From positions 3,187,103 to 3,251,102 of the forward strand of contig OZ240240.1 in assembly GCA_965198105.1 (NCBI GenBank): a stretch of DNA of 64,000 nt. The letters are read 5' to 3'. Every line of letters begins with the position of its first letter. Within the stretch, counting starts at the first letter, position 1. Shown in pieces: positions 39,870 to 54,725 of this stretch. A program made the position numbers and the translations under genes. The DNA comes from Dehalococcoidia bacterium (GTDB taxonomy: Bacteria > Chloroflexota > Dehalococcoidia > Lucifugimonadales > CBDBON01). Below the pieces are notes generated by a model. It was not told the DNA's origin, did not search any database, and saw nothing but the letters and a program-made list of their open reading frames with translations.

Positions 39870-40851
39870 ATGATAGGAGTTTTGGATCGTGAAGGTAGTC
39901 ATGCTGTTCAGATTGTCATCGGAGTCGACACTCACCGGGATCAGCATGTGGCGGTGGCCATTGACCGGCAAGGTATCCGCCTTGGCCAGCATCACGCGCC
40001 GGCAACCACGTTCGGGTATGGGGAGCTTGAACGGTGGTCCCGGAGCCTGGGAGAGATTCGCGCGTTCGGGATCGAAGGCACCGGTTCCTACGGCGCTGGT
40101 GTCGCCCGCTTCCTGACCGGTCGGGGTCATACCGTCGTCGAGGTCAATCGTCCTGATCGGTCAACCCGCTATCGGAAGGGGAAGAGCGACCCCACCGACG
40201 CGGAGATGGCAGCGCGTGCCGTGCTTGCCGGAGTAGCCGGCGCCACTCCCAAATCAGGCGAGGGCGAAGTCGAGTTGATCCGCATGCTCAAGAGTGCAAA
40301 GGACTCGGCCGTCAAGGCTCGCACCCAGGCCATCAACCAGATGAAGGCTCTGGTTGTCACGGCCCCGGCCGAGCTTCGCGAAACGCTCGATGGTCTCACC
40401 GCCGGCGCCCTGGTCACACGCTGCAAGAGCTTCCGTACAGGTCGTCTGGACGGTCCCATGGCAGCGGCCAGGTACGCACTTCGCTCTCTTGCCTGCCGCC
40501 ACCATCAGCTCAGCAAGGAGGTTCACGACCTCGAGGCCGAGCTCGATCGACTCACTCGGATGGCCGCTCCAGCCCTGGTCGGTATCTTCGGCATAGGACC
40601 CGACTCGGCGGCCAACCTCTTGATCGCTGCCGGCAGTAACTCTGAACGCCTCCAGTCCGACGCCGCGTTCGCCTCGCTGTGCGGTGTAAGTCCCATACCT
40701 GCTTCCTCCGGCAAGACTGTGAATAACCAGGGTCTTTAGGACAGAGAAGGGCGATTTAACCAGAGTCATTAGGACAGATAACCAGAGTCATTAGGACACT
40801 CTGAACGTCTGATTGGCGACCATTGCTGCAACCTGGATGTAAGGAGCAGCG

Positions 40852-42441
40852 ATGGCGTACAGGGAGGTGTTCAGAGTGGAGATCGCAGAAGTCATCCGGC
40901 GCTGGCAGGCAGGTGAGAGCCGGCGCCACATAGCCTCAGGTACGGGGCTGTCGAAAGACACGGTAGGCAAGTACATCGCGTCGGCGGAACGTCTGGGCGT
41001 AGTCCGGAACGGACCGGCCCCCAGCGATGAGCAGCTGGGCCGTCTGGCGACGATCAGCCGCCCTGGTCCAAGGCAGGCGTCGACGCCCATTGAGGCCAAG
41101 CTGGCTCCCTGGGCCGACCAGATCTACCAGTGGCTCACCGGCGACCGACTGCAAATGACCCGCATTCAGGAGTTGCTCAGGGAGCGAGACTGCCGGGTGT
41201 CCTACACCTCCCTGCACCGCTTTGTAGCGCGGCGCAACTGGCAGGGCCGCAACCGCAGGACGATGCGGATGGAGGAGAGCCCTCCGGGCGAGGTGGCGGA
41301 GCTGGACTTCGGTCGCCTGGGGCTGATGGAGGATCCTGAGACGGGCCGTCGCCGGACCGTGTGGGCGCTGATCGTGGTGCTGGCCTACTCCCGGCACAGC
41401 TTCGTCTGGCCCACCTTCAGCCAGAAGCTGGAGGACGTGGTGGCCGGGCTGGAAGCGGCCTGGGCCTTCTTCGGCGGTATCCCCAAGTACCTGGTCGTCG
41501 ACAACTTCCCGGCGGCGGTGGCCGGGGCCGACGCGCTGCACCCCCGTCTGACCCGCGGCTTCCTGGAGTACTCCCAGCACCGGGGCTTCATCACCGACCC
41601 GGCCCGGGTGCGCCGCCCCAAGGACAAGCCCAAGGTGGAGCGAGGCGTCCAGTACGTGAGGGAGCGCTTCTTCAAGGGCGGTGTCTTCAGGGACCTGCTT
41701 CATCTGAGGGCGGAAGCGACACGCTGGTGTCATGAAGTCGCTGGACAGCGCATCCACGGCACGACCCGGCGCAAGCCCTTGGAGGTCTTCGACGAGAAGG
41801 AGCGCCAGGAGCTGCTGGCCTGGGACGGCGAGCCCTACGAGATCACCCACTGGCGCAGGGCTAAGGTCCACCCCGACCACCACGTGTCCTGCCAGTACGC
41901 CCTCTACTCGGTGCCGTCGGTCCTGTGCCCGCCGGGTCAGCAGGTGGAGATCAGACTGGGCAGCAAGCTGGTGCGCATCTATCACCGGGGCCAGCTGATC
42001 AAGGTCCATCCCCGTCAGCCCAGGGGCGGCCGCTCCACCGATCCCGACGACTACCCGGCGGAGCTGACGGCCTACACCACGCGGACATCGGACAAGATCA
42101 AGCGCGGCGCGGTGGAGCAGGGGGAGGCGGTGGCCGCCTTCGCCGACCGGCTCTTCGAAGGCCCCCTGCCCTGGGCCAAGGTAAGGCAGGGACAGAAGCT
42201 TCTCCGGCTAGGCCAGCGCTACACCCCGGACCTGCTGGACGCCGCCTGCCGCAAGGCCCTGGACGTGGACCTGATCGACGTGAAGCGCGTGGAGCGCATC
42301 CTGACCGAAGCCCTGGAGCAGCAGGATGCGACGCTACATCCCGACCCCATGCCGCCGGGACGCTTCGCCAGACCCGGCTCCGTCTTCGCCCTGGCCAACG
42401 GCCACAGACCCAACTCAACACAACAAGGAGATCAGACATGA
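40852..42441 (+). CDS. istA: IS21-family transposase IstA
   Basis: 529 aa with an N-terminal HTH (RHIASGTGLSKDTVGKYI) and a DDE core (VAELDFG...VVDNF...KPKVERGV). Confidence 0.9.
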   Translation: MAYREVFRVEIAEVIRRWQAGESRRHIASGTGLSKDTVGKYIASAERLGVVRNGPAPSDEQLGRLATISRPGPRQASTPIEAKLAPWADQIYQWLTGDRLQMTRIQELLRERDCRVSYTSLHRFVARRNWQGRNRRTMRMEESPPGEVAELDFGRLGLMEDPETGRRRTVWALIVVLAYSRHSFVWPTFSQKLEDVVAGLEAAWAFFGGIPKYLVVDNFPAAVAGADALHPRLTRGFLEYSQHRGFITDPARVRRPKDKPKVERGVQYVRERFFKGGVFRDLLHLRAEATRWCHEVAGQRIHGTTRRKPLEVFDEKERQELLAWDGEPYEITHWRRAKVHPDHHVSCQYALYSVPSVLCPPGQQVEIRLGSKLVRIYHRGQLIKVHPRQPRGGRSTDPDDYPAELTAYTTRTSDKIKRGAVEQGEAVAAFADRLFEGPLPWAKVRQGQKLLRLGQRYTPDLLDAACRKALDVDLIDVKRVERILTEALEQQDATLHPDPMPPGRFARPGSVFALANGHRPNSTQQGDQT

Positions 42442-43223
42442 CCCGCAACGCCGACCTGGCCCCGCTACTCAAGGCCCTCAAGCTGAGCCCCATGCTGGAC
42501 ACCCTGCCCGAGCGCATAGCCCTAGCCCGAAGGGACCAGTTGGACTACGCATCCTTCCTGGAGATCATCCTGACCGACGAGGTCAGCCGAAGAGAGCACC
42601 GGCGCATCGACAACCGGCTGAACCGGGCCGGCTTCGAGGAGACCAGCCGCCTGGAAGACTTCGACTGGACGGCCAAGATCACCCTGGACCGCCGGCTCCT
42701 CGACGCCGCCTTCTCCCTGGACTTCATCGCCAAGCATGAGCACGTCCTGCTGATGGGACCGGCGGGCGTGGGCAAGAGCTTCATGGCTCAGGCCCTGGGC
42801 TACGTCGCCGTCAGAGCCGGATACGCTGTCCGCTTCATCCATGCCGACGACTTCTTCAAGGCCATGAGCCAGGCCAGGGTCGACAACTCGGTGGACAAGA
42901 CCTTCCGCTCCTTCCTCACACCCGACCTGCTGATCCTCGACGATCTGGGCCTTCACCGCCTCACCGCCCAGCAATCGGATGACTTCCACCAACTGGTTAT
43001 CGGCAAGCACAGGGCTTCCAGCTTCGTCATCACCTCCAACCGCGCCATCGAAGAGTGGCTCGGCCTCTTCAACGATCCCATCCTGGGCAACAGCGCACTG
43101 GACCGCCTGGCCAACGCCAGCTACCAGATCGTCATCGAGGGAACCAGCTACCGTCAGAGGCTTTCCCCTCACCGCGCCCTACTCGGCGAGGTGCCCACAA
43201 GTCCGACGAAGGGAGGTGATTGA
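42438..43223 (+). CDS. istB: IS21-family helper ATPase IstB
   Basis: Walker A GPAGVGKS and Walker B LLILDDLG. The start overlaps the istA stop (ATGA). Confidence 0.9.
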   Translation: MTRNADLAPLLKALKLSPMLDTLPERIALARRDQLDYASFLEIILTDEVSRREHRRIDNRLNRAGFEETSRLEDFDWTAKITLDRRLLDAAFSLDFIAKHEHVLLMGPAGVGKSFMAQALGYVAVRAGYAVRFIHADDFFKAMSQARVDNSVDKTFRSFLTPDLLILDDLGLHRLTAQQSDDFHQLVIGKHRASSFVITSNRAIEEWLGLFNDPILGNSALDRLANASYQIVIEGTSYRQRLSPHRALLGEVPTSPTKGGD

Positions 43224-43543
43224 CCCAACAACGGCAACCTGACAGAATCCGAATCATCGGCGTTCAGGGTGTCCTAATGTTCGTGGTTAACCCTGTCCTA
43301 ATGATACTGGTTAACGACACAAGACCAACCGCCATCGGCTCAACCGCGGTGGCGACCGTCAGGCCAATGCGGCTCTCTATCGCATCGTTGTGGTCAGACT
43401 CCGCCATGACCTCAGGACCCAAGCATACATGCGACGTCGAACCGCTGAGGGAATGAGTAAGCGTGACGTCATCCGCTGTCTCAAGCGCTATGTTGCCCGA
43501 GAAGTCTACTCCGCCATCCAGAAACCTGCTCAGATACTCGATG

Positions 43544-43623
43544 GGTTCCGTTTGCTTGCGGAGTACGTCGCTTGAAAGTCCTATGAACTAATGGGGGGGC
43601 GATACACCCAAAGGAAACGGAAC
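43544..43623. repeat. Left arm of the 80/79-bp inverted repeat flanking the CAP-domain gene
   Basis: ggttccgtttgcttgcggagtacgtcgcttgaaagtcctatgaactaatgggggggcgatacacccaaaggaaacggaac. It covers the last codons and right end of IS110 copy B plus 31 nt of flank. Confidence 0.9.
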
Positions 43624-43631
43624 CCAACGCC

Positions 43632-45035
43632 CTATTCCCCCTCGTAGAACAGAGAGTATTCGGATATGACTGCAACCTTGTCATCCACATGACCTTTTAG
43701 CACGATGGTATAGACTCCATCGCCATAGGTTGCCAGCAATCTGTACAGGTCTGCTTCTACATAGAACAGATTCCCGACTAGCCAAGTGGACGCTGTGAGG
43801 AAGGGTATCGGCACTGTTGTGTCTGGCAGGTTCTGACTCTCATTGTACGACTTGTGCCAGTATTCCAACGCCTCTGCATAGGACTCGGGCGCAGGTGCGC
43901 TTACGGGGATGTCGTAAGGGTCAGGACAGGGCTTATACGTTACTGTGGCTTCCTTTGTGCTGAAGTGACTGGCTGCGAGTGCTGAACGCAAAACGCCAAT
44001 AGGACGGCCGTGATCATAGCAGTGAGTCCTCGCCAACTGCCCTCTGTTGAGCGATGCAGGTGGTGGGTCATAGTAGATGTGAATCTTGTCGAATTCATCA
44101 AACTGTACGCCGTGACTGAAACTGCCGGAGAGAGTGAGCCAGCTATCCTCTAGCCTCGGTAGATGGTCGTAGGTGATGTGGTCGCCCTCGAATAGCTGGT
44201 AGGAAGTGAAGTTGTACCTATCCCAAGCTAGACCTATGTTGACCTTCCTATACGTCGGGTCGAGTATGGTGCTGCGGTGACCTGGACTATTCATCCACGC
44301 CTCCATCGCCCGTTCTATCTCCCTTTCTATGCTTTGAATGACAGGACGGCCATCGGAAGGCGTGATGCAGTAGTTCAGCCCTACTCCGTTCTCTTGGTTT
44401 GATTGATAGCCTCCGGCAAGGCTGTATCTCATGTAAGGCTGTAAGCCGCTTGCTGACCAATGGGACAAGAAACAGCCTTCGAGAGAAGCCTCAGCATGAA
44501 GCTGCGCCGCTCCGTTCTCACCCAGCACCATGGGGTCAAGTTCATCTTCCAGTCGTACAAGGTTGACTAACTCCAACATATAGAGCCGTGCTTCTGCAAG
44601 GTCAAACTCTGTTTGGGGGATTGGGGTAGCCGTCGGATTAGGAGTTGGTGGTATGACAGTGGGAAGGGGAGTGACTGTAGGCGTGGGAGTGACTGTAGGC
44701 TCAGGCGTAGATGTAGGGGACGGCGTAGGGGTGAAAGTGTAACCGCCACCTAATACGGGCGGAACCTCGGGGGTCTCGGCAGGAATGGGCGTGGGTATGA
44801 GAATCACCGGCACAACAGTAGGAGTGGGAGTAGGGGTTGCAGTCGCCACCACTACGGGAGGGGTGACTGCAATGACTACGGGCGTAGGTGTCCGTAGAGG
44901 CGTAGACGTGGCTGTGCCATTCCTACTGATCGTCGGTACATCCAGAGTAATCGTCGTATCCCCATATTGACTGCCAATGGCGAAGACGACAATGACCAGG
45001 GCGATTAGACCAATGACGATGAGTAGCTTTCCCAT
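43632..45035 (-). CDS. Membrane-anchored CAP/SCP (PR-1-like) domain protein with Pro/Thr-rich linker
   Basis: N-terminal TM helix LLIVIGLIALVIVVFAI, a PTPTP linker, and the CAP signature EAWMNSPGHRSTIL. G+C is visibly lower than in the surrounding sequence. Confidence 0.8.
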   Translation of the reverse strand: MGKLLIVIGLIALVIVVFAIGSQYGDTTITLDVPTISRNGTATSTPLRTPTPVVIAVTPPVVVATATPTPTPTVVPVILIPTPIPAETPEVPPVLGGGYTFTPTPSPTSTPEPTVTPTPTVTPLPTVIPPTPNPTATPIPQTEFDLAEARLYMLELVNLVRLEDELDPMVLGENGAAQLHAEASLEGCFLSHWSASGLQPYMRYSLAGGYQSNQENGVGLNYCITPSDGRPVIQSIEREIERAMEAWMNSPGHRSTILDPTYRKVNIGLAWDRYNFTSYQLFEGDHITYDHLPRLEDSWLTLSGSFSHGVQFDEFDKIHIYYDPPPASLNRGQLARTHCYDHGRPIGVLRSALAASHFSTKEATVTYKPCPDPYDIPVSAPAPESYAEALEYWHKSYNESQNLPDTTVPIPFLTASTWLVGNLFYVEADLYRLLATYGDGVYTIVLKGHVDDKVAVISEYSLFYEGE

Positions 45036-45102
45036 ACATCCCTTCCCGCCTCTATGGACTTATCACGCATGGGCAGGGTTGTCAATGCGCCATAGAACAT
45101 CA

Positions 45103-45181
45103 GTTCCGTTTCCTTTGGGTGTATCGCCCCCCATTAGTTCATAGGACTTTCAAGCGACGTACTCCGCAAGCAAACGGAACC
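45103..45181. repeat. Right arm of the 80/79-bp inverted repeat
   Basis: Exact reverse complement of 43544..43623, except for 6 C here versus 7 G in the homopolymer. Confidence 0.9.
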
Positions 45182-45477
45182 ACTCGATGAAGCCGCTTGA
45201 CAGTTAGCGAGGACATAATCGCTGAGCAGTTACAGAAAACGTATCTGAAATTACCCGCGCCCACCTACGCGCCCACCTTTCAGGCGGTCATGTCGAAAGG
45301 GAGTCTCCAGGCTTCAGAAGTGTAATACCCTGTAACCCACTGTGCTGCAACTGCCCTTATGCACGCGCGGGGGGTAGGGACTTGTTGCACGACACCCTAC
45401 AGTCTATTACACTTAGGGCATTCAGCTACGAATCACTGGAAAAGAGAAGGGCCAGCGTCCTGAGAAACCGGCCCTAA

Positions 45478-47895
45478 ATGCACCAGGAGAGTAAGTCCGT
45501 GATGCCTAACGAGCATAGCACTCCCGGTCTGAGCTTCCAACCCCCCCGCATCTCGCTGATGGATGCAGTCAACGCGCTCGGCAGCTACATGCTCGGCGCG
45601 AATTTCGACGGCATCAAGACCAGATGGGAGATCGACGCTCAGGATATGCGGACCGACTGCCCCATCTGCCGCCAAGAGTTTGCCGTGCAGCTGCTACCGC
45701 AGACGAACGGCAGTATCAAGGCAGAGTGTCTCTCTGATGCTGGGTGCAAGAAGCGCGACCTTGAGCGCCGTCTCAAAGAGGATCGGGGCCTCGGCCTCCG
45801 CCGTCGCAAAGGGAGTAAGCCCCGCGCCCCGAAGGACCTGACGGTCGACACGCCGATCTACGAGGACTCTGTGACGGGAGACGGCTGGCGGCTACTCTGG
45901 GAGCACGGCCCCCGCCTCTTGCTAGTCTGGCGCCTCGGACAGCTCGGAGACGTTTACGTGCTCGATCTGGACTCCGGGACGTGGCGGGCCGACCGCAACG
46001 AACTTGGACACCTACATGAACGTGCCGCACGACAATACGCCGTCAACATGGCGCTCCGCGCCCAGCAGGGCGAGGCCGAGATGAACAAGGCCCTCGCCTT
46101 TCAACGTTGGGCCAGGCGGACGCAATCGAGCGCGGGCCTAGAGAATGTCATCAAGTGGGCGGGTGTGGCCTACAAGGCCATGGATGAGGAGGGGCTCGGC
46201 TCAAAGGTTGGAAGAGTCGCCCAGGCGCACGAATTGGATGCCGACCGGCACTATCTCGGCTGCGCCAACGGTGTCCTCGATCTGACCGACGGTCGACTCC
46301 TCGGCCCGGACGAGGCGCAGAAACACCTAGTCACCCGGTCGACCGGCATCGGCTATGACCCGGACGCGCACCATGACTACGTTGACGAGCTGCTTTACCA
46401 CCTAGCCACCGTCGAGGCGGACTACATCCTCGACAGCGCGGCCTACGCTTTGCGCGGGAATCCCGGCCGGCGCTGGCATCTGCTCGTGGGCGAGAAGGGG
46501 GGCGGCAAGACGACGTTCCTGAACGCGATCCGCGCGGCCGTCGGAGATGCGGACGCCTATGGCTACGGGTTCGGACTCAAACCGGGCCTACTCCTGAAGG
46601 ACCGCAACCCGTCGCGCGAGGGACACACCGAATCGCTGAAGCATTTCCCGGTGGGCCGCATCGCCACAGCCGCAGAGCTCCCGGACATGAGTAAGCGATT
46701 CGATGACGACTTACTCAAGATGTTGACGGGCGGCGACCCGATACCCATCCGCGAGATTTACGGCCGCATGGGGGCGAGTCGACCATGCTCGGCTACCATC
46801 TTCCAAGCGATCAACCCGGGCCAGTTGGCGCGGCTATCTCTCATCGACGATGCCCTTGCCGATCGCACGTCGATTCTACGCTGGCCGACTCTCCCGTCGG
46901 GCACGAAACGCGACAGCGACCGGGTAACGGACGTTATGGTCCCGGACGTAACTAGGGCGATGCTGGCCGAACTGGTGCGCCGTGCCGTTAAGCTGAAGCA
47001 GCCGCCGCCCATGCCGGAGAACGTGAAGGACTACGTAGAGCAGAAGCGCCGGGGCGACTTGGGAGAGGTCGGGGCTTGGTTCCTGGTCAACATCGAGATC
47101 ACCGACTCGCCGAAGGATGTAGTGACGCCGGAGCAGATTTGGGATGCCGCGATTGATGCCGTGGGGCCGCTCGACGACAAGGAGAAGCTGCACGGAATGG
47201 ACCGCAAGGAGACGCTGGGGCTACTCCGGGAAGCGAAACCGGGCCTGCCGGCGCAACGGTCGAAGCGCATCGACGGCAAGGTGCGGAATGCCTATGTCGG
47301 AGTCCGGCTACTGGACGTCGTATACCAATGTTCTATCTGCTTCAAGGACATGAACGACAAGACTGACCTGAAAGACCTAGCCGGTCGCGGGCCGGTGTGT
47401 CCCGACTGCCGAGCCCCCCACGACCTGGGCGATCCTCCGGTCGCGCCGCCTACGGCGGCGCCCGGCGGCCCGCACACACAGGCCCGGTTCGCGGGATCCC
47501 CGCCCCCGCCACTCCACACGGCGCTACTCACCCGTATGGAAACCTTGCGGGCCGCGCTCCACTTCCCCGATCCCGACGCCTATGATACCCCTGCCCAGCT
47601 TAAGGCGGCGCTCCGCGGACTGGCGAAGCTGTACGAGGCCCGACCGTGGGACGTGCTGGGGCCGCGCCATGTAGAGGCCCTCGGCGGGGCTGACCTAATG
47701 GTCAGCATCGTTGCGGGCGCATGGGCGGATAATGCCGCCGAAACCGCGCCGCTGGAAGCGGCGGACTGGAATTGGTACCTGAACGATCTTCGCCGGTACG
47801 TCGACGACCGCGAGGCCGACCAGCGCGAGGCCGGAGCCGCTCGGGTCCGGGAGTTACCGTCTCGGATGCTGTCTCGGCAGATGCCACTGAGCTAG
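45478..47895 (+). CDS. Phage/plasmid primase-helicase, P4/D5 family
   Basis: 805 aa with an N-terminal Zn-finger CPICRQEF, a D5_N-like middle region, the P-loop GEKGGGKTTF, and a second CSIC...CPDC finger. Confidence 0.8.
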   Translation: MHQESKSVMPNEHSTPGLSFQPPRISLMDAVNALGSYMLGANFDGIKTRWEIDAQDMRTDCPICRQEFAVQLLPQTNGSIKAECLSDAGCKKRDLERRLKEDRGLGLRRRKGSKPRAPKDLTVDTPIYEDSVTGDGWRLLWEHGPRLLLVWRLGQLGDVYVLDLDSGTWRADRNELGHLHERAARQYAVNMALRAQQGEAEMNKALAFQRWARRTQSSAGLENVIKWAGVAYKAMDEEGLGSKVGRVAQAHELDADRHYLGCANGVLDLTDGRLLGPDEAQKHLVTRSTGIGYDPDAHHDYVDELLYHLATVEADYILDSAAYALRGNPGRRWHLLVGEKGGGKTTFLNAIRAAVGDADAYGYGFGLKPGLLLKDRNPSREGHTESLKHFPVGRIATAAELPDMSKRFDDDLLKMLTGGDPIPIREIYGRMGASRPCSATIFQAINPGQLARLSLIDDALADRTSILRWPTLPSGTKRDSDRVTDVMVPDVTRAMLAELVRRAVKLKQPPPMPENVKDYVEQKRRGDLGEVGAWFLVNIEITDSPKDVVTPEQIWDAAIDAVGPLDDKEKLHGMDRKETLGLLREAKPGLPAQRSKRIDGKVRNAYVGVRLLDVVYQCSICFKDMNDKTDLKDLAGRGPVCPDCRAPHDLGDPPVAPPTAAPGGPHTQARFAGSPPPPLHTALLTRMETLRAALHFPDPDAYDTPAQLKAALRGLAKLYEARPWDVLGPRHVEALGGADLMVSIVAGAWADNAAETAPLEAADWNWYLNDLRRYVDDREADQREAGAARVRELPSRMLSRQMPLS

Positions 47896-48204
47896 ACCGC
47901 GAGGTGACAGGTGGGCCAGCGCAGCTGGCCCGCCACAGCAGGGGGACATTGACTAGCACTCGGCACTATCATCTCTGGGCGCCTCCGGCAGCTGACGGTG
48001 AAGTGCGGACACTCCGCAAGGATTCGCGGCGATTCCCGTCGCGCTCCGAGGCGAACGCGGCGGCGCGGGAGTCGGAGCGCCGGGGAACTCGAGTCTTGAT
48101 CTGCCGCGACGCTGCTTGTCCGCCCCCGGCGCGACGGCTCCCCGGCCAATCGCCGTTCTGAGGCGGCGGGACGGAGCCGAACGAACGGAGATCGAGGAGA
48201 CACG

Positions 48205-48438
48205 ATGACCCACCACGAACCTGCAGGCTGCGAGATCGAGGGCTGCGGCCGCTGTGACGATTACGGACTCGGCTACTCGGCTGGCAAATCAAAGATGCTA
48301 TTCGAGATCGGCGCGACCGTCACGGGCGGCCATCCTGCCGACTGCACGTGTTCCACGTGCGGCCAGCTGCGCGGGGAGATAGCCCGCCAGCGGGCGGATA
48401 TGTTCGCCGATGCAATATCCGAGCTGGCGGGGGTGTAA
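48205..48438 (+). CDS. Small Cys-rich protein, HPxxCxCxxC family member 1
   Basis: GAGGAG lies 7 nt upstream. CEIEGCGRCDDYGLGYSAGKSKMLFEI...GGHPADCTCSTCGQL is a clear paralogue of the ORF at 48885. Confidence 0.65.
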   Translation: MTHHEPAGCEIEGCGRCDDYGLGYSAGKSKMLFEIGATVTGGHPADCTCSTCGQLRGEIARQRADMFADAISELAGV

Positions 48439-48478
48439 CGATGCCTAGGGCTGGTGGAATCCTAATTCTCACAGAGCT

Positions 48479-48694
48479 TTGAGGGCGCGCGCAGCCCGTC
48501 TGGGGATCACGTTGAAGGGTAGACTCGGCTACTTCCATCTGGTGAACGGCCAGGGCGAAGTGCTGACCGACCGGAAGTTGCGGGAACCGGAGATTCTCAT
48601 ATGGCTGGACGTCGCCGCCGAGCAGCACCGCGCCGACTGTGTCTGCGCTCCATGCTCGAACTTCCGCGCGGTCCGGGCGCGGTCGAGGGGCTGA
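48479..48694 (+). CDS. Small protein with C-terminal HRxxCxCxxC motif (start uncertain)
   Basis: EQHRADCVCAPCSNF. Its stop lies 2 nt before the next start. TTG start with no clear RBS. Confidence 0.4.
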   Translation: MRARAARLGITLKGRLGYFHLVNGQGEVLTDRKLREPEILIWLDVAAEQHRADCVCAPCSNFRAVRARSRG

Positions 48695-48696
48695 CT

Positions 48697-48888
48697 ATGG
48701 AGCGCATGGCGGGCGAGTGCATGACAAAGCTACGATTCAAGACGGGCTACGGCGCGAGGGCGGCCCCCGACCGGCTGAATTCAAGGGCGGACACGTTCGG
48801 GGTGCTCGAGGTCTATCGCTGCCGGAGCTGCGGGCTGTACCACCTGGCGACGGCCCGGCCCAGGGTGAGAAGGAAGGTGGCAAGATGA
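48697..48888 (+). CDS. Small CxxC protein
   Basis: GAGGGG upstream. EVYRCRSCGLYHLA. The stop overlaps the next ATG (ATGA). Confidence 0.5.
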   Translation: MERMAGECMTKLRFKTGYGARAAPDRLNSRADTFGVLEVYRCRSCGLYHLATARPRVRRKVAR

Positions 48889-49163
48889 TCAGGCTACACG
48901 ATTATTCGGCCTGCCGATTGAACCTCTGTGAGCGCTGCCATGACTTCGCCACGGGCTGGGCCTCTGGCAAGGAGAAGCAACTGACCGAGATCGCCTCGAC
49001 GATAGCGGAGCAACACCCCAAAGGCTGCCATTGTTCCCCGTGCGCGGCTCTCCAAAGCGAGGTCGAGGCGCTGAGCAGACTGAGCGGCGGAAAGTATGCC
49101 AGTCTGGCTAGGCTGCTTCCCCGTCGGCGGGCGGTAGCGGCCGCCGACGGGGAAGCCCAATGA
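48885..49163 (+). CDS. Small Cys-rich protein, HPxxCxCxxC family member 2
   Basis: CRLNLCERCHDFATGWASGKEKQLTEI...EQHPKGCHCSPCAAL. ATGA overlaps on both sides. Confidence 0.65.
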   Translation: MIRLHDYSACRLNLCERCHDFATGWASGKEKQLTEIASTIAEQHPKGCHCSPCAALQSEVEALSRLSGGKYASLARLLPRRRAVAAADGEAQ

Positions 49164-49408
49164 CCGGCCACCCAGACGATTGCGACTGCTGGCATTGTGA
49201 GGTTCGACCCGTCTTCGAGGCGGGCTTCCGGCTGGGCTTGAGGCGAGGCCGGGATAGTGGCTGGCGGCGCGGCTTCGAGGCGGCGGGTCATTTCAGGCGG
49301 GCCGAGGCCCAGGTCGCCGCCGTCCGTCACCACCCGGAGGCCTGCCCTTGTGGGGAGTGCGTGGAGGCCAGGGCCGCCTTTTACCGGTGGATGGAGATCG
49401 GCGGCTAG
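49160..49408 (+). CDS. Small protein with two HPxxCxCxxC motifs
   Basis: GHPDDCDCWHC and HHPEACPCGEC. It is translationally coupled to the previous ORF. Confidence 0.6.
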   Translation: MTGHPDDCDCWHCEVRPVFEAGFRLGLRRGRDSGWRRGFEAAGHFRRAEAQVAAVRHHPEACPCGECVEARAAFYRWMEIGG

Positions 49409-49529
49409 CCCCGGCAGACCCACCCCCGCGCGCACGCGCACGTCACGGAGTGGCGGGGGGTCAAAATCCTGTCCCTATATATATAATATGAACGGGCTTT
49501 TCGACTCATACATGCATGGGCGTGACAGC

Positions 49530-49934
49530 TCATGCGGTATTCCCCCGGTTGAGCGGCGTGCCCGGGAAGCGCGTGGGCACGTTCTTGATCGTGACATGAA
49601 CGGGCGTGGGCGGGGGAGCGGGCCTGGCTTTGACTCGCGGCGGGCCGTCCGGCAGCACGATTTTCATTAGCTCGTCAAGCTCTTCCTCGTGGGTCATTAC
49701 CGGCTTAGTAGACGGCTTGGGGGGCTGCTGTCTGAATTGGCCCGCAAGCTGCACGTATCGTCCCGGGCCGTGTCTGCTGGTCTCCATCTGGGGCTGCTCG
49801 CTTTCAGCCTCTTCGGCCTTCCGCTGCTCGTAGAGCGCTTGTCGGTGAGCGGGAGAGCACGTCTTCGAGGTCGAGCGGGAGTACCGGTACTGGTTGCCGC
49901 AGTAGTCACAGCGTCGCCGTCTCGTCTTTGCCAT
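49530..49934 (-). CDS. Hypothetical Zn-ribbon protein
   Basis: N-terminal RRRCDYCGNQYRY...CSPAHRQALYEQRK. It is divergent from the iteron region. Confidence 0.5.
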   Translation of the reverse strand: MAKTRRRRCDYCGNQYRYSRSTSKTCSPAHRQALYEQRKAEEAESEQPQMETSRHGPGRYVQLAGQFRQQPPKPSTKPVMTHEEELDELMKIVLPDGPPRVKARPAPPPTPVHVTIKNVPTRFPGTPLNRGNTA

Positions 49935-49949
49935 AAAACCGCCCTCCCC

Positions 49950-50033
49950 TTACCGTCAGATTAGCGTCAGTCGCTCGTATCTGTTAGCGTCAGCCTTACC
50001 GTCAGCTTATCGTCAGTCGCGGTCTGACGGTAA
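49950..50033. promoter_or_regulatory. Iteron array: five direct TTA[CGT]CGTCAG repeats plus one inverted copy
   Basis: Direct copies at 49950, 49961, 49984, 49996 and 50007. Inverted ctgacggtaa at 50024. Spacing is mostly 11-12 bp. Confidence 0.7.
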
Positions 50034-50179
50034 CTTGGCCTACAATCCGCCCCTTTCGAGAGCCGTCCATTCACATTTTACCAGCTCCCACCAGTGGACA
50101 GAGGGGCCGATTTGACGGGGCTAACCCCCGGAGCGCAAGATCGTGGCGCTGGTGCCGCCGGAGAAGGGGAAGCGAACCG

Positions 50180-50203
50180 ACTTGTCAACCCAAGTTGACA
50201 AGT
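50180..50203. promoter_or_regulatory. Perfect 10-bp inverted repeat ACTTGTCAAC-ccaa-GTTGACAAGT (candidate operator overlapping a TTGACA box)
   Basis: Read directly. It lies in the divergent region between 49934 and the downstream plus-strand ORFs. Confidence 0.45.
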
Positions 50204-50589
50204 TACCGATCTTCCGCCAGGTACTCGCTCTGATGCGTCGGGCGTATGAGTACGTGAGCGACGAGCGGTTCGCGGAATTGAAGGCGGCCGCCATCAAGAC
50301 CGGGACCCACTTGACGCGGGCGGCAGTCAGCAAAGAGAGTGCCGCCGGAGAGACGATTCCACTAGAGAGGTTTGGCCCGTTTTCGGCCCTTCGTCCCGAA
50401 GGTCGGCGACAAAGTCGTAGGTGATGAGTCCGCCTTGGCGAAGGAATTCGGGACACTTCCCCCTGTTCTGTCCCCCCCTAACGGCTCCAAGGTACGCTAG
50501 ACTCCCCTGCTGGATTCCGGCAGCGTAATGTCTTTTGCGGTACGCCGCCGCAGAATACTTCGGCCGCAAGACCAACCCCCCCTACCATC

Positions 50590-50766
50590 ATGCGATGGGT
50601 ACACGACTTCGCCGACCGTGCCCGTGGCATTGTCTGCGAGACGAAGATTCGCACTGGGCCGGAGTGGGTAGCGGATGAGATAGTCGTTCGGGTCGGCGGC
50701 CGCAAATATCGGCTTTTCAACGTTATGGACTTCGAGAAGCGTCCTCGCGGCCTACCTGTCGCCTGA
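50590..50766 (+). pseudogene. Short fragment of a DDE transposase (IS6-like core)
   Basis: 58-aa ORF with WVADEIVVRVGGRKYRLFNVMD, which resembles the W.vDEt.v.v.G...yL..a.D block. No remainder of the gene is present. Confidence 0.35.
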
Positions 50767-50823
50767 GCGAACGGCCAGAGTAGTCGGGACCGCCATGAGC
50801 CTGGCGCAACCATTGACAGCGCG

Positions 50824-51126
50824 TTGCGGTCGGTGGGGTTCGAGGTTCTGGAGACACGGGACCTAGCGGTACAGACCGGTCCTTCGGTTCCCTGGTACCA
50901 GCCCCTGGTCGGCGAAGGCCTCTCTTTCGCCTCTTTTCGCAGCTCTAGGATCGGACGCTGGGTCACGCGAAGCTCGCTGAGGGCGATGGAGACGCTCCAC
51001 ATTGCACCGCAGGGCTCGGTCCGGGTAGCGGAGACTCTGGACCTGTGCGCGGACGTCATGGCGGAGGCGGGCCGGCTCGGTATCTTCACGCCGATGTACT
51101 TCATCCACGCCCGCGAGCCGGAGTAG
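50824..51126 (+). pseudogene. C-terminal fragment of a SAM-dependent (sterol/CFA-type) methyltransferase
   Basis: GFEVLETRDLA...PWYQPL.G...GIFTPMYFIHAREP resembles the Sterol_MT_C-type C-terminus. The SAM-binding N-terminal part is absent. Confidence 0.45.
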
Positions 51127-51219
51127 CGCAAGTTAGCCGTCGCGCTCCAGGAAACCTCTGCACCCGACGTCATTCCCGCACGGGTAGACCCCTGCAGCAT
51201 CGTTACTCCCCATCAAGTT

Positions 51220-51251
51220 GTGAACGGCGGAGCAATAATGGACCGTGCTGG
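51220..51251 (+). repeat. Short copy of the GTGAACGGCGGAGCAATAATGGRCCGTGC repeat
   Basis: Direct repeat of 53801..53832, matching 30 of 32 nt. Confidence 0.8.
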
Positions 51252-51530
51252 TGCATGAACCGTGATCGGGTCGTATAGGAGCCATCTGGTATCATCGGGA
51301 GCAATTCGAGTGACATTTCCGCTGGCCACTTAGCCGGACATTGTATCTTTGGCTGCGTGGACCACTTCTGTAACCAGCATGGTCCCTTGGGTGCGGCAGA
51401 CCGGTCGGACATTGGTCGTAGGAGGCCGTCGAAAAGCGAGGGTCGCCCCACTCATTCCGTTAGAGCCCGAACGGTTGCCTGGGCTAACCAAGCCCGTATC
51501 TTGCAAGGCCGGGCCAATACCATACGGGAG

Positions 51531-52484
<954 letters not shown>

Positions 52485-52715
52485 CAGAGAAGACGGTTGC
52501 TTTTCGCTGACCATCGACACAAGTCCACCAGGGCGGCCCTGTGCCGAAGGGAGGCTGCTGAGGCGACCGACGGCTATCGGATGGTGAAAGGGAAAGGGCA
52601 GGAGGGCGAGCCTTCAACCCTACAGAGCCAAGGGCCACCTAGAGCAGGTTTGTCGGAGTGGGAGCGAACACCATCATCGACTGTGATATCCGATGCCAGA
52701 TGGGCGGCATAGCGA

Positions 52716-53804
52716 ATGAGTGCTCCAATGTCAGGCCTATGGGTGCCTGATCGCCGAAAAGGTGAAGTCGGTAGACGGATTGAGCCTCTCAAAAGAGCTG
52801 AGGGTCGTAAAGGTCGCTGCCTTTTCGTGATTGATGAAGATGGACACACTTGCGGGAATCCCATTTACAACAATTGTCACGTCATCCCCGAATCGACAGT
52901 CCTGGATGACCTAAAGGACGTAAGCTCGGGGAAGGTCTATGAATTTCGGTGGGGGGTATCTCAGTGGGGACATTTCTTCTCCAAGAGCAGCGAGGCCAAT
53001 CCCATCAACTTGACCGACGTAGACGCGTTTGAGCCACAATCTGTAGGCACCGGTGATGCATGTGTCGGATGGTTCGCCTGCAAGCAGGATGATACGGATC
53101 ACGACGGCGAGTTCAGTGCCATAGATGTCAAAGAGCCGGACTTCGACGATCCAGTTATACGATTTCTGTCTGCTTATCGTGCTTTTCTCTACGAAGTGGA
53201 CATGTCTAGGAGAGTAAAGGATCTAGTGAATGACTGGAACAATAGGGCTCGAGCACACCCCCAGAGAGATATTCGTGTCGAATGGAGCAGACTTCGGGGA
53301 ATCTGGAGGAATAGGACTCCGAGGGCAGAAGCAACCGCAAGCCGGTTAAGCAAGGTTTGGTACCGTTGGAAGACACATGGAGGGTTCGATTCTGACACAG
53401 TTTCTGGACAATTGGTGAGCTTTCGCTCCAAGCTGAAATTTGCTGCATGTGGGCTCTACGGAGGCGTCGTTGTGACCGTGTCCCCGGAAGGAGAGGATGG
53501 GCACAAGATGGGCATCCTGCATCTATCCGAAGATGCTGATTCCGCCAAAGAGGACAAAGAAAAGCTGGTCCGACTAGCGGAAGTCTCTAGAGCATCGGAC
53601 AACTACGGCGTAGGCGTAGTAGAAGAATTGATGACCAACGGTTGGGGTGCAGTAGCGGCGTCGCCGGAGTCTTACAGTGGATTGCATATTGAGGAGAAGC
53701 GGACGATGCGGAGTTTCGTGGCCCGCAATTCGTCTGCCAACACCATGGCGAAGGCCCTTGCATCCCCGCGGCCAGAGTTGAAGGGTTGGAGGGGCAGACT
53801 GTGA
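52716..53804 (+). CDS. Orphan 362-aa protein with an N-terminal Cys/His cluster (possible His-Me/HNH-like nuclease)
   Basis: Long ORF in a lower-G+C segment. GRCLFVIDEDGHTCGNPIYNNCHVIPES. No other recognisable domain. Confidence 0.55.
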   Translation: MSAPMSGLWVPDRRKGEVGRRIEPLKRAEGRKGRCLFVIDEDGHTCGNPIYNNCHVIPESTVLDDLKDVSSGKVYEFRWGVSQWGHFFSKSSEANPINLTDVDAFEPQSVGTGDACVGWFACKQDDTDHDGEFSAIDVKEPDFDDPVIRFLSAYRAFLYEVDMSRRVKDLVNDWNNRARAHPQRDIRVEWSRLRGIWRNRTPRAEATASRLSKVWYRWKTHGGFDSDTVSGQLVSFRSKLKFAACGLYGGVVVTVSPEGEDGHKMGILHLSEDADSAKEDKEKLVRLAEVSRASDNYGVGVVEELMTNGWGAVAASPESYSGLHIEEKRTMRSFVARNSSANTMAKALASPRPELKGWRGRL

Positions 53805-53848
53805 ACGGCGGAGCAATAATGGGCCGTGCCGGCGGGGTCGAGTGCTGA
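53801..53848 (+). repeat. Longest copy of the GTGAACGGCGGAGCAATAATGGGCCGTGCCGGCGGGGTCGAGTGCTGA repeat
   Basis: It starts inside the stop codon of the ORF at 52716..53804. Related copies lie at 51220 (direct) and 36637 (inverted). Confidence 0.8.
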
Positions 53849-53936
53849 TCAGGGGTGTCGATGGTCAGGATAAATGTCCGGCTAAGTGGCCAGCATAAAT
53901 GTCACTGGTATTGGTGGCGATGAAAACAGATGTCTC

Positions 53937-54640
53937 CTATACGACCCGATCGCGCTTGATGGGTGGGCTGACGGCTTCCATGTACTTCTTCGCCGTGTCC
54001 CGGTGGATGCCCAGCTCCCGTGCTACCCCTCTAATCGACAGACCCCTGCGCTTCGCCTTCTGAACGGGGTTCCACCTTGCCGTCTGAAGTGGAGTGGGCT
54101 TCCTGCGTTGCATGGCAGGCGCCTTGCGGACTCTGACGGCGCCGTTGTCGTCAGCATCGCGGGCGTCCATCTCTGCGTCGAGTGCTGCCAGGACCGCCTC
54201 CCAGCGCCTGCCCAGACCGTTGAGGTTCGGACGTGGGCCCGATTTGTGCGAGGAAGAGCCGTTGAAGCTTCTGAGTATGCTCGGACGGGATGGCGCCTCC
54301 TGGCTGGCGATGATCTCTCCCCGGTAACGCACAGCCATCTGGCCGTCTAGGTCTTCCAGCACATCTACCACCGCTCCCTCCCCGGCAGCAGCTGAAGCGT
54401 ACGCCACCTGTACTTCACAGTGTTGTCCCTGGCCACCCTGCGGCTGTGTCTGAAGCAGAGCACCCTATCGAGGCATACTCCCGGTCCCAACGGGCGGTAG
54501 GCTGTCTCAGGATGCTGTGCCGCCACTCCAAAGCGTTCGTTGAAGCAACCCTGGTCGCTACTCGCTTCAACCCAGTGATCAGGTCCTTCTATACTCGGCT
54601 GTGCGGTCGGTGTAGAGGGCGATGGGTATGCCGTACCTGC
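53937..54640 (-). pseudogene. Degenerate second copy of the ISNCY-like transposase gene (internal deletion and frameshifts)
   Basis: ORF 53937..54407 parallels the C-terminus of copy 1 (ASQEAP...RKPTPLQTARW...GLSIRGVARELGIHRDT). Upstream, NERFGV...RDNTVKYRWRTLQLLP and GIPIALYTDR are found in other frames. Confidence 0.65.
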
Positions 54641-54725
54641 GGTCTCCTAGACCAAGGATGGACCGATCTGTCACGCCCCTCCAAAGATACAAGGATGGGG
54701 GATTCTTCTCGGCGAGGGAGAGTAA

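Follow-up and report, generated by a model that had tools for sequence, protein, structure and literature searches.

The segment at positions 43544-45181 of the stretch of DNA analysed here (the window, 64,000 nucleotides from the genome of a Dehalococcoidia bacterium) is in all likelihood a non-autonomous mobile insertion cassette derived from IS6-type elements, in which two MITE units in inverted orientation enclose a single gene for an exported CAP protein. That the cassette has moved is evident from two observations: its removal restores the empty site in an IS110-family element, and a second copy lies between different flanks elsewhere in the genome. The general kind of element is known, but its family is barely documented, and the present cases add to its record a set of IS6-derived miniature elements, along with cassettes of one gene each, from uncultured Dehalococcoidia.

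The repeat units and the gene between them

The two arms of the cassette, at 43544-43623 and 45103-45181, form a perfect inverted repeat save for a run of seven G at 43593-43599 against six C at 45127-45132, just as the earlier note had described for its arms of 80 and 79 bp. Neither the inner 30-mer (43594-43623 on the + strand and 45103-45132 on the - strand) nor the outer 49-mer (43544-43592, + strand; 45133-45181, - strand) contains a mismatch, and none of 100 shuffled controls was positive for such a match. The earlier note had divided each arm into 49 nt of IS110 sequence and 30 nt of its flank; instead, both parts belong to one palindromic unit of 79-81 nt, which is dispersed through the 3.6-Mb genome in about 25 copies, partial ones included (22 full-length matches in this genome, G000). 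The inner repeat, for which a genome-wide search had been proposed as a check, is part of this dispersed unit, and all 16 genome sites that carry the first 25 nt of the outer 49-mer are repeat units as well. As delimited by unit alignments, the left arm is an 81-nt copy (43544-43624, + strand) and the right arm an inverted 80-nt copy (45102-45181, - strand), whose inner end at 45102 reads AGTTCC, with one mismatch. Since the arms are two copies of a dispersed repeat, no local inverted duplication need be invoked, and the recombination event once suggested as its source becomes superfluous.

Each arm is a hairpin by itself, with the ends GGTTCCGTTT...AAACGGAACC (DNA fold z = -3.6), and the unit is composed of two terminal repeats of ~22 nt (GGTTCCGTTTNCTTNNGGNGT) placed back to back. 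A search of the genome for the terminal motif gave 48 occurrences, against 0 for its reversed control. On the + strand, the left arm comprises the outer terminal repeat GGTTCCGTTTGCTTGCGGAGTA, a spacer with the G7 tract, and the inner terminal repeat TACACCCAAAGGAAACGGAACC. The poly-G tract differs in length among units (G6, G7 and G10), and these homopolymer differences may be long-read errors. Some flanks are common to several unit copies in this genome, and four units elsewhere in it lie within IS110-family elements, each at exactly 36 nt from the left end. Metagenome scans with the inner 24-mer and the outer 22-mer returned 0 matches each. No Rfam family was matched between 43300 and 45400 at E <= 1, and a scan of the arms and adjoining DNA for consensus promoters and terminators found none, nor any terminator-like T-run.

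Between the arms there is no transposase gene, and the only substantial ORF is the cargo gene itself (43632-45035, - strand), which encodes a protein of 467 aa. The CAP (SCP/PR-1-like) domain and the low G+C content noted earlier both held up: the domain matches Pfam PF00188 with E 1.5e-5, and the G+C fraction over 43001-45000 is 0.545-0.555, as against 0.636 for the genome. The protein begins with a membrane anchor, followed by a Thr/Pro-rich linker, the CAP domain and a C-terminal region of ~190 aa for which there was no family match. A pattern-based scan of the genome collection for this protein gave a single weak match, of 35% identity, in a Clostridia MAG; a genome of the same genus (G001) contains CAP homologues at 42-48% identity, which are without flanking repeats. 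The upstream region of the gene (45036-45101, - strand) also lies within the cassette and contains a TTGACA hexamer and a purine-rich, putative ribosome-binding stretch, and a consensus promoter scan of this region found no site.

Given these features, one might regard the 1.5-kb segment as an invertible switch, with recombination between the arms flipping the CAP gene relative to signals outside. Perfect inverted repeats of 80 bp would indeed be a substrate for homologous recombination, and the variable poly-G tracts resemble phase-variable sequence. This proposal is nevertheless left without support, because neither the ORFs nor the Pfam matches in or beside the segment include an invertase or other site-specific recombinase, and because the upstream region of the CAP gene travels within the segment. 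Moreover, the arms belong, like any other copy, to a dispersed repeat family, and transposition alone accounts for the target duplication and second copy described below. We hence consider such a switch highly improbable, and favor the interpretation of the segment as a transposed cassette.

Insertion into an IS110-family element and copies elsewhere

The host of the cassette is an IS110-family element, called copy B (39796-45206, + strand), which is broken by two nested insertions. The window segments 39796-40717, 43320-43543 and 45182-45206 are collinear with an intact IS110 copy (genome 1798006-1799162) at 96-98% identity, and the N-terminal ORF of copy B matches the Pfam families DEDD_Tnp_IS110 and Transposase_20. 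The first interruption is an IS21-family element (40718-43319, + strand) with istA at 40852-42441 (rve, Mu-transpos_C_2) and istB at 42438-43223 (IstB_IS21, E 6.6e-56); it is bounded by a 6-bp duplication, in that reference bases 1798922-1798927 are found on each side. The second is the cassette, a 1638-bp unit of arm, CAP gene and arm, immediately outside of which stand the two copies of the 8-bp target duplication ACTCGATG (43536-43543 and 45182-45189), a sequence that the intact IS110 copy contains only once. When the flanks are joined without the cassette, they read through as the 3' end of intact IS110 copies without a break (query 1-218, 97.7%, genome 1798945-1799162). This reconstruction and the 8-bp duplication together identify IS110 as the target and the cassette as the inserted party. 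The insertion point is ~17-20 nt from the right end of copy B, which is truly located at ~45203-45206 and not within the left arm. Thus, the local map is corrected, with copy B spanning 39796 to ~45206 and interrupted twice, and the CAP gene is the cargo of its own cassette, belonging neither to IS110 nor to the ISNCY-like element next to it.

These results bear upon a different account, in which IS110-type elements target the 30-nt terminal repeats of the cassette at a fixed offset, with one IS having been deleted later to leave a 49-nt stub at the right. IS110 sequence does adjoin the left arm, and the four units lying 36 nt inside IS110-family left ends speak for some association between both types of element. 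However, the outer 49 nt, earlier read as the last codons and right terminus of IS110, are absent from every intact IS110 copy, the intact copies reading ...CAGATACTCGATGAAGCCGCTTGACAG; the ORF of copy B instead runs into the inserted DNA, its tail being ...ILDGFRLLAEYVA* in place of ...ILDEAA*. The right side was thought to retain only the 49-nt fragment, whereas IS110 sequence resumes just outside the right arm, at 45182-45206. The 16 sites with the first 25 nt of the 49-mer, all of them repeat units, and the 8-bp duplication that marks the cassette as the inserted party are also against this account, which is already refuted by the empty-site alignment and to which we assign next to no probability. 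What survives of it is that the CAP gene resides in a small mobile element with terminal inverted repeats, while the targeting is reversed: it was the cassette that entered IS110. Neither the 8-bp direct repeat nor the dispersal of the whole arm through the genome had been mentioned in the earlier note.

The second CAP cassette is found 341 kb away (genome 3571611-3573252) and differs from the first by 3 substitutions and in homopolymer length. Homology between the two breaks off precisely where the arms end on the outside, and the second copy has its own duplication, TTGGCAAC. The CAP gene is intact in both, with products that differ by 2 amino acids. A further duplicated cassette in this genome carries a gene of the SBP_bac_3 family, and its flanking 8-mers are inverted rather than direct. 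Around most solo 79-nt units in this genome, a direct 8-bp duplication is absent; together with the inverted 8-mers of the SBP_bac_3 cassette, this means that simple MITE-style insertion fails to account for every copy. The inverted flanking 8-mers and certain element ends that are exactly 8 bp apart offer indirect hints at a possible route through cointegrates. Beyond this genome, G001 has 3 units but lacks the CAP cassette and likewise the empty site for the second copy of that cassette, and four further MAGs share the 79-nt unit (1-3 units each), none of them with the CAP cassette.

The scarcity of duplications at solo copies, the flanks common to some copies and the strength of the hairpin might together suggest that the 79-nt units are REP-like or structured-RNA elements (a terminator, insulator or small RNA), and that the cassette was duplicated by ordinary segmental recombination. 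Against this stand the lack of an Rfam family and of a terminator-like T-run; furthermore, recombination between dispersed repeats does not leave two sites of unrelated sequence each with a direct 8-bp target duplication, and the ends of the units belong to transposase-bearing elements. There is accordingly very little chance that this alternative is correct, and we return to transposition by an IS6-type enzyme as the preferred explanation.

Autonomous relatives and the proposed transposase

The link to the IS6 family is provided by autonomous elements in other Dehalococcoidia MAGs, which possess the same terminal repeats and 8-bp duplications. Two of these (L126 and L127) are identical 2716-bp elements, with duplications GCTCGTGG and CCCCGCTT, and a third (L130) is 1983 bp long, with the duplication GGTAGCTG; over their first 13-14 nt, the ends of the arms match those of all three without a difference. 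The autonomous transposase combines the Pfam domain DDE_Tnp_IS240 (PF13610, E 1.9e-23) with an N-terminal Zn_ribbon_InsA domain. Two such proteins score 138.6 and 135.9 bits against the NCBIfam equivalog NF033587 ('IS6 family transposase'), and a third, with 123.8 bits, falls just under the cut-off of 125 bits. The transposase gene lies between or beside GGTTCCGTTT ends in these three elements and at 6 more loci, a terminal repeat being present 30-600 nt past its 3' end in 9 of 10 transposase loci. The autonomous elements also bear passenger ORFs.

Perfect 8/8 duplications were observed for 15 among 149 candidate end pairs, and besides the two CAP cassettes, 8-bp duplications surround the 3 autonomous and 8 other non-autonomous elements. 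Cassettes of unit, cargo and unit with a perfect 8-bp duplication are present in L014, L044, L056 and L120; L066, L080 and L090 hold simple cassettes. In the cassettes of other Dehalococcoidia MAGs the cargo consists mostly of exported proteins, and in one case of another CAP protein.

In this genome, the cognate transposase is represented by broken pieces without terminal repeats nearby, and no intact version or resident autonomous element was found. One piece, of 57 residues, lies in the window itself (50572-50742, + strand) and aligns to residues ~86-145 of the autonomous transposases (tblastn, 47% identity, E 1e-8; also E 7e-10). Another, at genome 2177489-2178097, has an internal stop and truncations, and closely resembles the window remnant. 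As only such broken copies remain, the cassettes are probably stranded in this genome. Likewise, G001 has no cognate transposase. The two CAP cassette copies are nearly identical, even though no intact transposase was found in their genome, which counts against the IS6 reading.

This state of affairs invites the proposal that some other resident transposase which duplicates 8 bp, chiefly of the IS256 family, mobilises the cassette, its IS6-like ends being coincidental. The IS256-family element is present in ~20 copies of 1369 bp with numerous intact transposase genes, and several copies have perfect 8-bp duplications, so that the genome does hold an active 8-bp-staggering enzyme while the IS6-type one is broken. 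Its ends, GAGGTACCCTCAAAAGGTGTGTAAACG and GAGGTTGCGTCAATAGTGGTGTAAACG, nonetheless do not align with the terminal repeat GGTTCCGTTTGCTT, those of a second IS256-type element differ too, and in other genomes it is to an IS6-type gene that the GGTTCCGTTT ends are physically linked. An IS256-type driver is thus very unlikely, and as a parent IS256 was rejected, its elements being abundant but unrelated in their ends. Other candidate parents were also set aside: the genome contains no ISL3 transposase, and the single IS1-like gene (genome 1481951-1482769) has no matching ends. An IS630 copy in another bracketed segment (genome 644946-646115) proved to be an independent 1171-bp multi-copy insertion and not a driver.

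Under the favored IS6 scenario, the MITE unit would represent two IS terminal repeats of ~22 bp joined back to back. A DDE transposase of the IS6 type, bearing a zinc ribbon at its N-terminus and acting in trans, would bind the outermost terminal repeat at each end, make an 8-bp staggered cut in the target, and thereby move the entire 1.6-kb unit. This unit has landed close to the right end of an IS110 copy and again at a site 341 kb away. The route may have been the replicative one typical of IS6, namely formation of a cointegrate followed by its resolution through homologous recombination. Intramolecular replicative transposition of IS6 elements yields a second copy in inverted orientation, and the inverted pair of units could possibly have originated from a single unit in this manner.

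A broader proposition, which we put forward tentatively and on balance doubt, is that in some Dehalococcoidia the hairpin-ended cassettes serve, across the lineage, to shuttle genes for exported proteins, with an IS6-type transposase routinely making single genes portable. An inverted second module of 70-80 nt with a double repeat would be set beyond a gene by intramolecular replicative transposition, and the cargo would encompass CAP domains, solute-binding proteins, peptidases and small lipoproteins. If true, there would be a cassette pool with a role comparable to that of integron cassettes; and the apparent preference for exported proteins, if upheld, would suggest transposon-driven turnover of the cell-surface repertoire.

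Comparison with known systems

Fixed-position insertion by IS110-family elements is known from IS4321 and IS5075 (IS1111 group), which insert into the 38-bp ends of Tn21-family transposons and served as the analogy in the earlier note. In those cases too an IS110-family element directly adjoins a transposon end, but in the window the transposon end sits inside IS110, the duplication is ascribed to the mechanism of the cassette itself, and the arms contain no IS110 sequence.

Segments bracketed by miniature elements have precedents in integron mobilisation units and in the MITE pairs that flank class 1 integrons in Acinetobacter. In Pseudomonas, composite elements are similarly built from two MITEs, namely TIMEs (Szuplewska et al. 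2014, PMC4133298). As in the CAP cassette, a pair of miniature, transposase-less elements brackets a segment that moves as one and acquires a single target duplication. These composites have Tn3-family or other parents, duplicate 5-6 bp and were captured on plasmids, whereas the CAP cassette is IS6-type, duplicates 8 bp and carries a chromosomal gene for an exported protein in an uncultured lineage of Chloroflexota.

The term mobile insertion cassette recalls MIC231 of Bacillus cereus, in which Chen and co-workers (writing in Mol Microbiol in 1999) are said to have found IS231 ends around a passenger gene and to have mobilised it in trans experimentally. Such cassettes share with ours the IS-type ends, the one passenger gene, the lack of a transposase, the target duplication and the presence of more than one copy. 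The parent of MIC231 is of the IS4 family rather than IS6, the duplication differs in length, and the ends are simple, as opposed to the hairpin-doubled ends seen here; mobilisation in trans, experimental for MIC231, is for the CAP cassette a deduction from sequence. The same term has also been applied to the qnrS2 cassette of the Aeromonas plasmid pAC3 (PMC5444012).

The nearest relatives are IS6/IS26, especially their long zinc-finger members and ISDsp3 (Varani et al. 2021, PMC7986276; Harmer and Hall 2019, PMC6807381). The autonomous relatives share with them the type of transposase, and the GGTTC start of the ends and the 8-bp duplication are further common features. The family is characterized by 8-bp target duplications and the terminal-repeat consensus GGTTCTGTTGCAAA (PMC7986276, PMC6807381). 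The terminal repeat GGTTCCGTTTGCTT agrees with this consensus, which is that of short bacterial members and not of the long zinc-finger clade, at 9 of 14 positions; within the first 9 it agrees at 8, the invariant GG among them, and past position 9 it diverges. In the published IS6 inventory there are only two MITEs and a single member that carries a passenger, the latter from Dehalococcoides (PMC7986276); ISDsp3 of Dehalococcoides sp. BAV1, by its description, resembles the autonomous relatives in bearing passenger ORFs. The window cassette departs from IS6 elements in having no transposase, and in ends that are double-repeat hairpin modules of ~80 nt instead of repeats of 14-36 bp. Finally, classical IS6 compound transposons have their ends in direct repeat, and pseudo-compound ones are described as always doing so (PMC7986276), while the two modules of the cassette are inverted, a departure from the rule that counts against the IS6 reading and also makes the cassette a test substrate for the choice of ends by zinc-finger IS6 transposases.

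The arms as copies of a dispersed repeat unit

The CAP cassette is a 1638-bp segment (43544-45181) in which two inverted arms enclose a minus-strand ORF of 467 aa (43632-45035) with a CAP domain detected by Pfam. As an earlier note had described from the sequence, 43544-43623 and 45103-45181 are exact reverse complements of each other except for a homopolymer, which is G7 at 43593-43599 versus C6 at 45127-45132, and the DNA of the CAP gene is indeed low in G+C (0.545-0.555 versus 0.636 for the genome). At 45102 the right arm's inner end reads AGTTCC, with one mismatch. The inner 30-mer and outer 49-mer of the arms were absent from all 100 shuffles.

The same note interpreted each arm as the end of an IS110 element plus a flank; this had to be abandoned, as the arms proved to be copies of one dispersed 79-nt unit, for which GGTTCCGTTTGCTTGCGGAGTACGTCGCTTGAAAGTCCCTATGACTATTGGGGGCGATACACCCAAAGGAAACGGAACC was derived from aligned copies. 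The genome holding the window is a single contig of 3.645 Mb, and a genome-wide search recovered the inner 24-mer of the arm at 21 sites, in dispersed units; the first 25 nt of the supposed outer part occur 16 times. BLAST finds about 25 copies of the unit, and the genome search 22 full-length matches. As members of this host-wide family, the arms at 43544-43624 and 45102-45181 show that the integrative island at window 34718-54700 is not free of host repeats. Its ends are imperfect inverted copies of a single motif of about 22 nt, GGTTCCGTTTNCTTNNGGNGT, which is also present at further sites with other interiors; the genome contains 72 such ends at ≤2 mismatches, and 48 exact matches versus none for the reversed control.

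Folded as DNA, each arm forms a long imperfect hairpin (z = -3.6), with GGTTCCGTTT at its start and AAACGGAACC at its end. A REP-like or RNA role for these hairpins is not supported, and would not account for the 8-bp duplications described below. We found no positive support for an invertible switch, in which the 1.5-kb segment between the arms flips.

Insertion of the cassette into an IS110 element

The arms are directly flanked by an 8-bp direct repeat, ACTCGATG (43536-43543 and 45182-45189). When the flanks are joined with a single octamer, they give an unbroken alignment to intact IS110 copies, with 97.7% identity between query positions 1-218 and genome 1798945-1799162, and 85.8% to genome 2478290-2478073. 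Judged from these sequences, the cassette was inserted into IS110, and not IS110 into the cassette, and the empty-site alignment thereby refutes the earlier suggestion of IS4321/IS5075-type targeting of the cassette ends. The intact IS110 copy reads ...CAGATACTCGATGAAGCCGCTTGACAG, with the transposase C-terminus ...AQILDEAA*, whereas the window IS110 ORF continues into the arm and ends ...AQILDGFRLLAEYVA*, which explains why the arm had seemed to contain the last IS110 codons.

With the intact 1157-bp copy at genome 1798006-1799162 as reference, the broken host element, copy B, aligns collinearly over 39796-40717, 43320-43543 and 45182-45206; the two interruptions are an IS21 element (40718-43319, with a 6-bp duplication) and the cassette. 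The right boundary of copy B is ambiguous (45194-45206), because the last ~9 nt of IS110 are identical to the target sequence. The DNA just past copy B (GCTTGACAGTTAGCGAGGACATAATCGCTGAGCAG...; window 45194-45234 and 36755-36800) forms the terminal repeat of a different multi-copy element, with further occurrences at genome 135742, 1397102 and elsewhere. Copy B lies inside the end of this element, which places the CAP gene at the third level of nested insertions; the gene is thus no original passenger of the ISNCY-like element.

A second copy of the cassette, oriented oppositely on the chromosome, occupies genome 3571611-3573252. The copies are separated by 3 substitutions, of which two alter amino acids (T406I and P409T), and the homopolymers of the second copy are G10 and G7. 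Homology between the copies breaks off precisely at the outer arm ends, and the second copy has its own 8-bp duplication, TTGGCAAC. Simple insertion of the complete arm-gene-arm unit is thus documented twice, independently.

A probable IS6-type parent

The insertion-sequence content of the genome is unusually high, including a 1171-bp IS630-family element (~7 copies) and a 1369-bp IS256-family element (~20 copies, e.g. 2744002-2745370), several of the latter with perfect 8-bp duplications. As candidate parents, the abundant IS256 family also makes 8-bp duplications but has unrelated ends (GAGGTACCCTC...), and no ISL3 gene was found in the genome.

A collection-wide scan with the terminal motif returned at least 112 stretches; among the matches listed, most are from Dehalococcoidia MAGs, and many are 68-79-nt double-repeat units resembling that of the window. 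At one such locus the motif adjoins a 363-aa ORF with a Pfam DDE_Tnp_IS240 domain (E 1.9e-23) and an InsA-type zinc ribbon; the ORF also scores above the NCBIfam cut-off for the IS6-family equivalog. We fetched ten loci coding for relatives of this protein: in nine the motif lies 30-600 nt past the 3' end of the transposase gene, and three are complete elements, with both ends present and perfect duplications of 8 bp, namely two identical 2716-bp copies (L126 and L127; GCTCGTGG and CCCCGCTT) and one of 1983 bp (L130; GGTAGCTG). Defining traits of the IS6 family are 8-bp duplications and the end consensus GGTTCTGTTGCAAA (PMC7986276, PMC6807381), which the cassette ends match at 8 of the 9 first positions. 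The autonomous element at L126 1353-4068 (= L127) has extra ORFs beyond the transposase, including a small lipoprotein-like one with a Thr/Pro repeat downstream of it; hence passenger genes occur in the autonomous form too.

All copies of the cognate transposase that we found in this genome are broken. One, at genome 2177489-2178097, is truncated at both ends, has one internal stop and shares 44-46% identity with the transposases of autonomous relatives. The other is a 57-residue fragment at window 50572-50742 (~residues 86-145, ~47% identity to the autonomous relatives) with nearly the sequence of the first, so that the parent IS was once present here in at least two copies. The same-genus genome G001 has three units, and no transposase was found in it. 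Near-identical 79-nt units, 1-3 per genome, also occur in four other MAGs; the CAP cassette is absent from all four, and one has an intact transposase gene. The exact terminal motif occurred once, in one of 200 evenly sampled other genomes of the class; the family is thus patchy and expanded in this genome. Metagenome scans for the arm sequence (inner 24-mer, outer 22-mer) gave 0 matches.

Recurrent cargo, mode of movement and known analogues

Of 149 candidate end pairs, drawn from this genome and the fetched loci, 15 show flanks that match perfectly (8/8); these include autonomous elements, four further unit-cargo-unit composites (L014, L044, L056, L120) and three simple cassettes (L066, L080, L090). 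Read directly from the sequences, the cargo mostly has an N-terminal signal, lipobox or membrane anchor, giving the impression, in a small sample, of a bias to exported proteins. By Pfam, L056 carries a Peptidase_MA_2 protein, and unit-bracketed segments of this genome an SBP_bac_3 and an Excalibur/GmrSD_C protein. CAP proteins are a recurring cargo: the cassette at L120 710-2696, from an unrelated MAG, carries a CAP-domain gene. At genome 708970-710958, adjoining two terminal-repeat ends (710901, 710958), lies the gene of a further exported CAP-domain protein of 305 aa (PF00188, E 9.6e-18), and after it that of a collagen-like repeat protein. In G001, a CAP homologue of 42% identity is part of a duplicated segment of at least 3.5 kb, with two inverted copies of 99.9% identity (L144 and L145) and no GGTTCCGTTT ends.

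The CAP cassette is best read as a non-autonomous IS6 derivative, moved in trans via its two outermost terminal repeats. The known IS6 route is replicative, with a cointegrate resolved by homologous recombination, and intramolecular events yield an inverted second copy and an inverted target duplication (PMC7986276); such an intramolecular route would be a natural origin for the inverted unit pair around the gene.

Simple insertion does not account for several observations. Solo units in this genome mostly lack direct 8-bp duplications. The SBP_bac_3 cassette, with solute-binding cargo, is itself duplicated (genome 650143-651238 and 2257785-2258880, 99.3% identical, homology ending at the outer ends of the units), and its flanking 8-mers are inverted, not direct (GCCTGGGG ... 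CCCCAGGC). Neighbouring element ends lie exactly 8 bp apart at genome 651238/651247 and 695477/695486 and at L120 2696/2705; in L120 the octamer GAATAGTT is found three times around a pair of abutting elements, suggesting that one target was hit more than once. Finally, four 79-nt units are situated exactly 36 nt inside the left ends (AGCAACTGTCTTGAAAGTCAAG...) of IS110-family elements of three sequence variants (genome 650107, 2841908, 1403234, 2259640), and the remainder of the IS110 left end does not resume beyond the units; these may reflect target preference or rearrangement breakpoints. All four misfits may stem from intramolecular rearrangements of the IS6 type or from a target preference.

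The CAP cassette is a real mobile element and belongs to a known kind, that of MITE-flanked composites or mobile insertion cassettes. Such derivatives of its IS6-type lineage have hardly been recorded before: the published IS6 inventory lists only two MITEs and one passenger-carrying member, ISDsp3, from a Dehalococcoides (PMC7986276). Its closest experimentally studied analogues are the TIME composites (PMC4133298) and MIC231.
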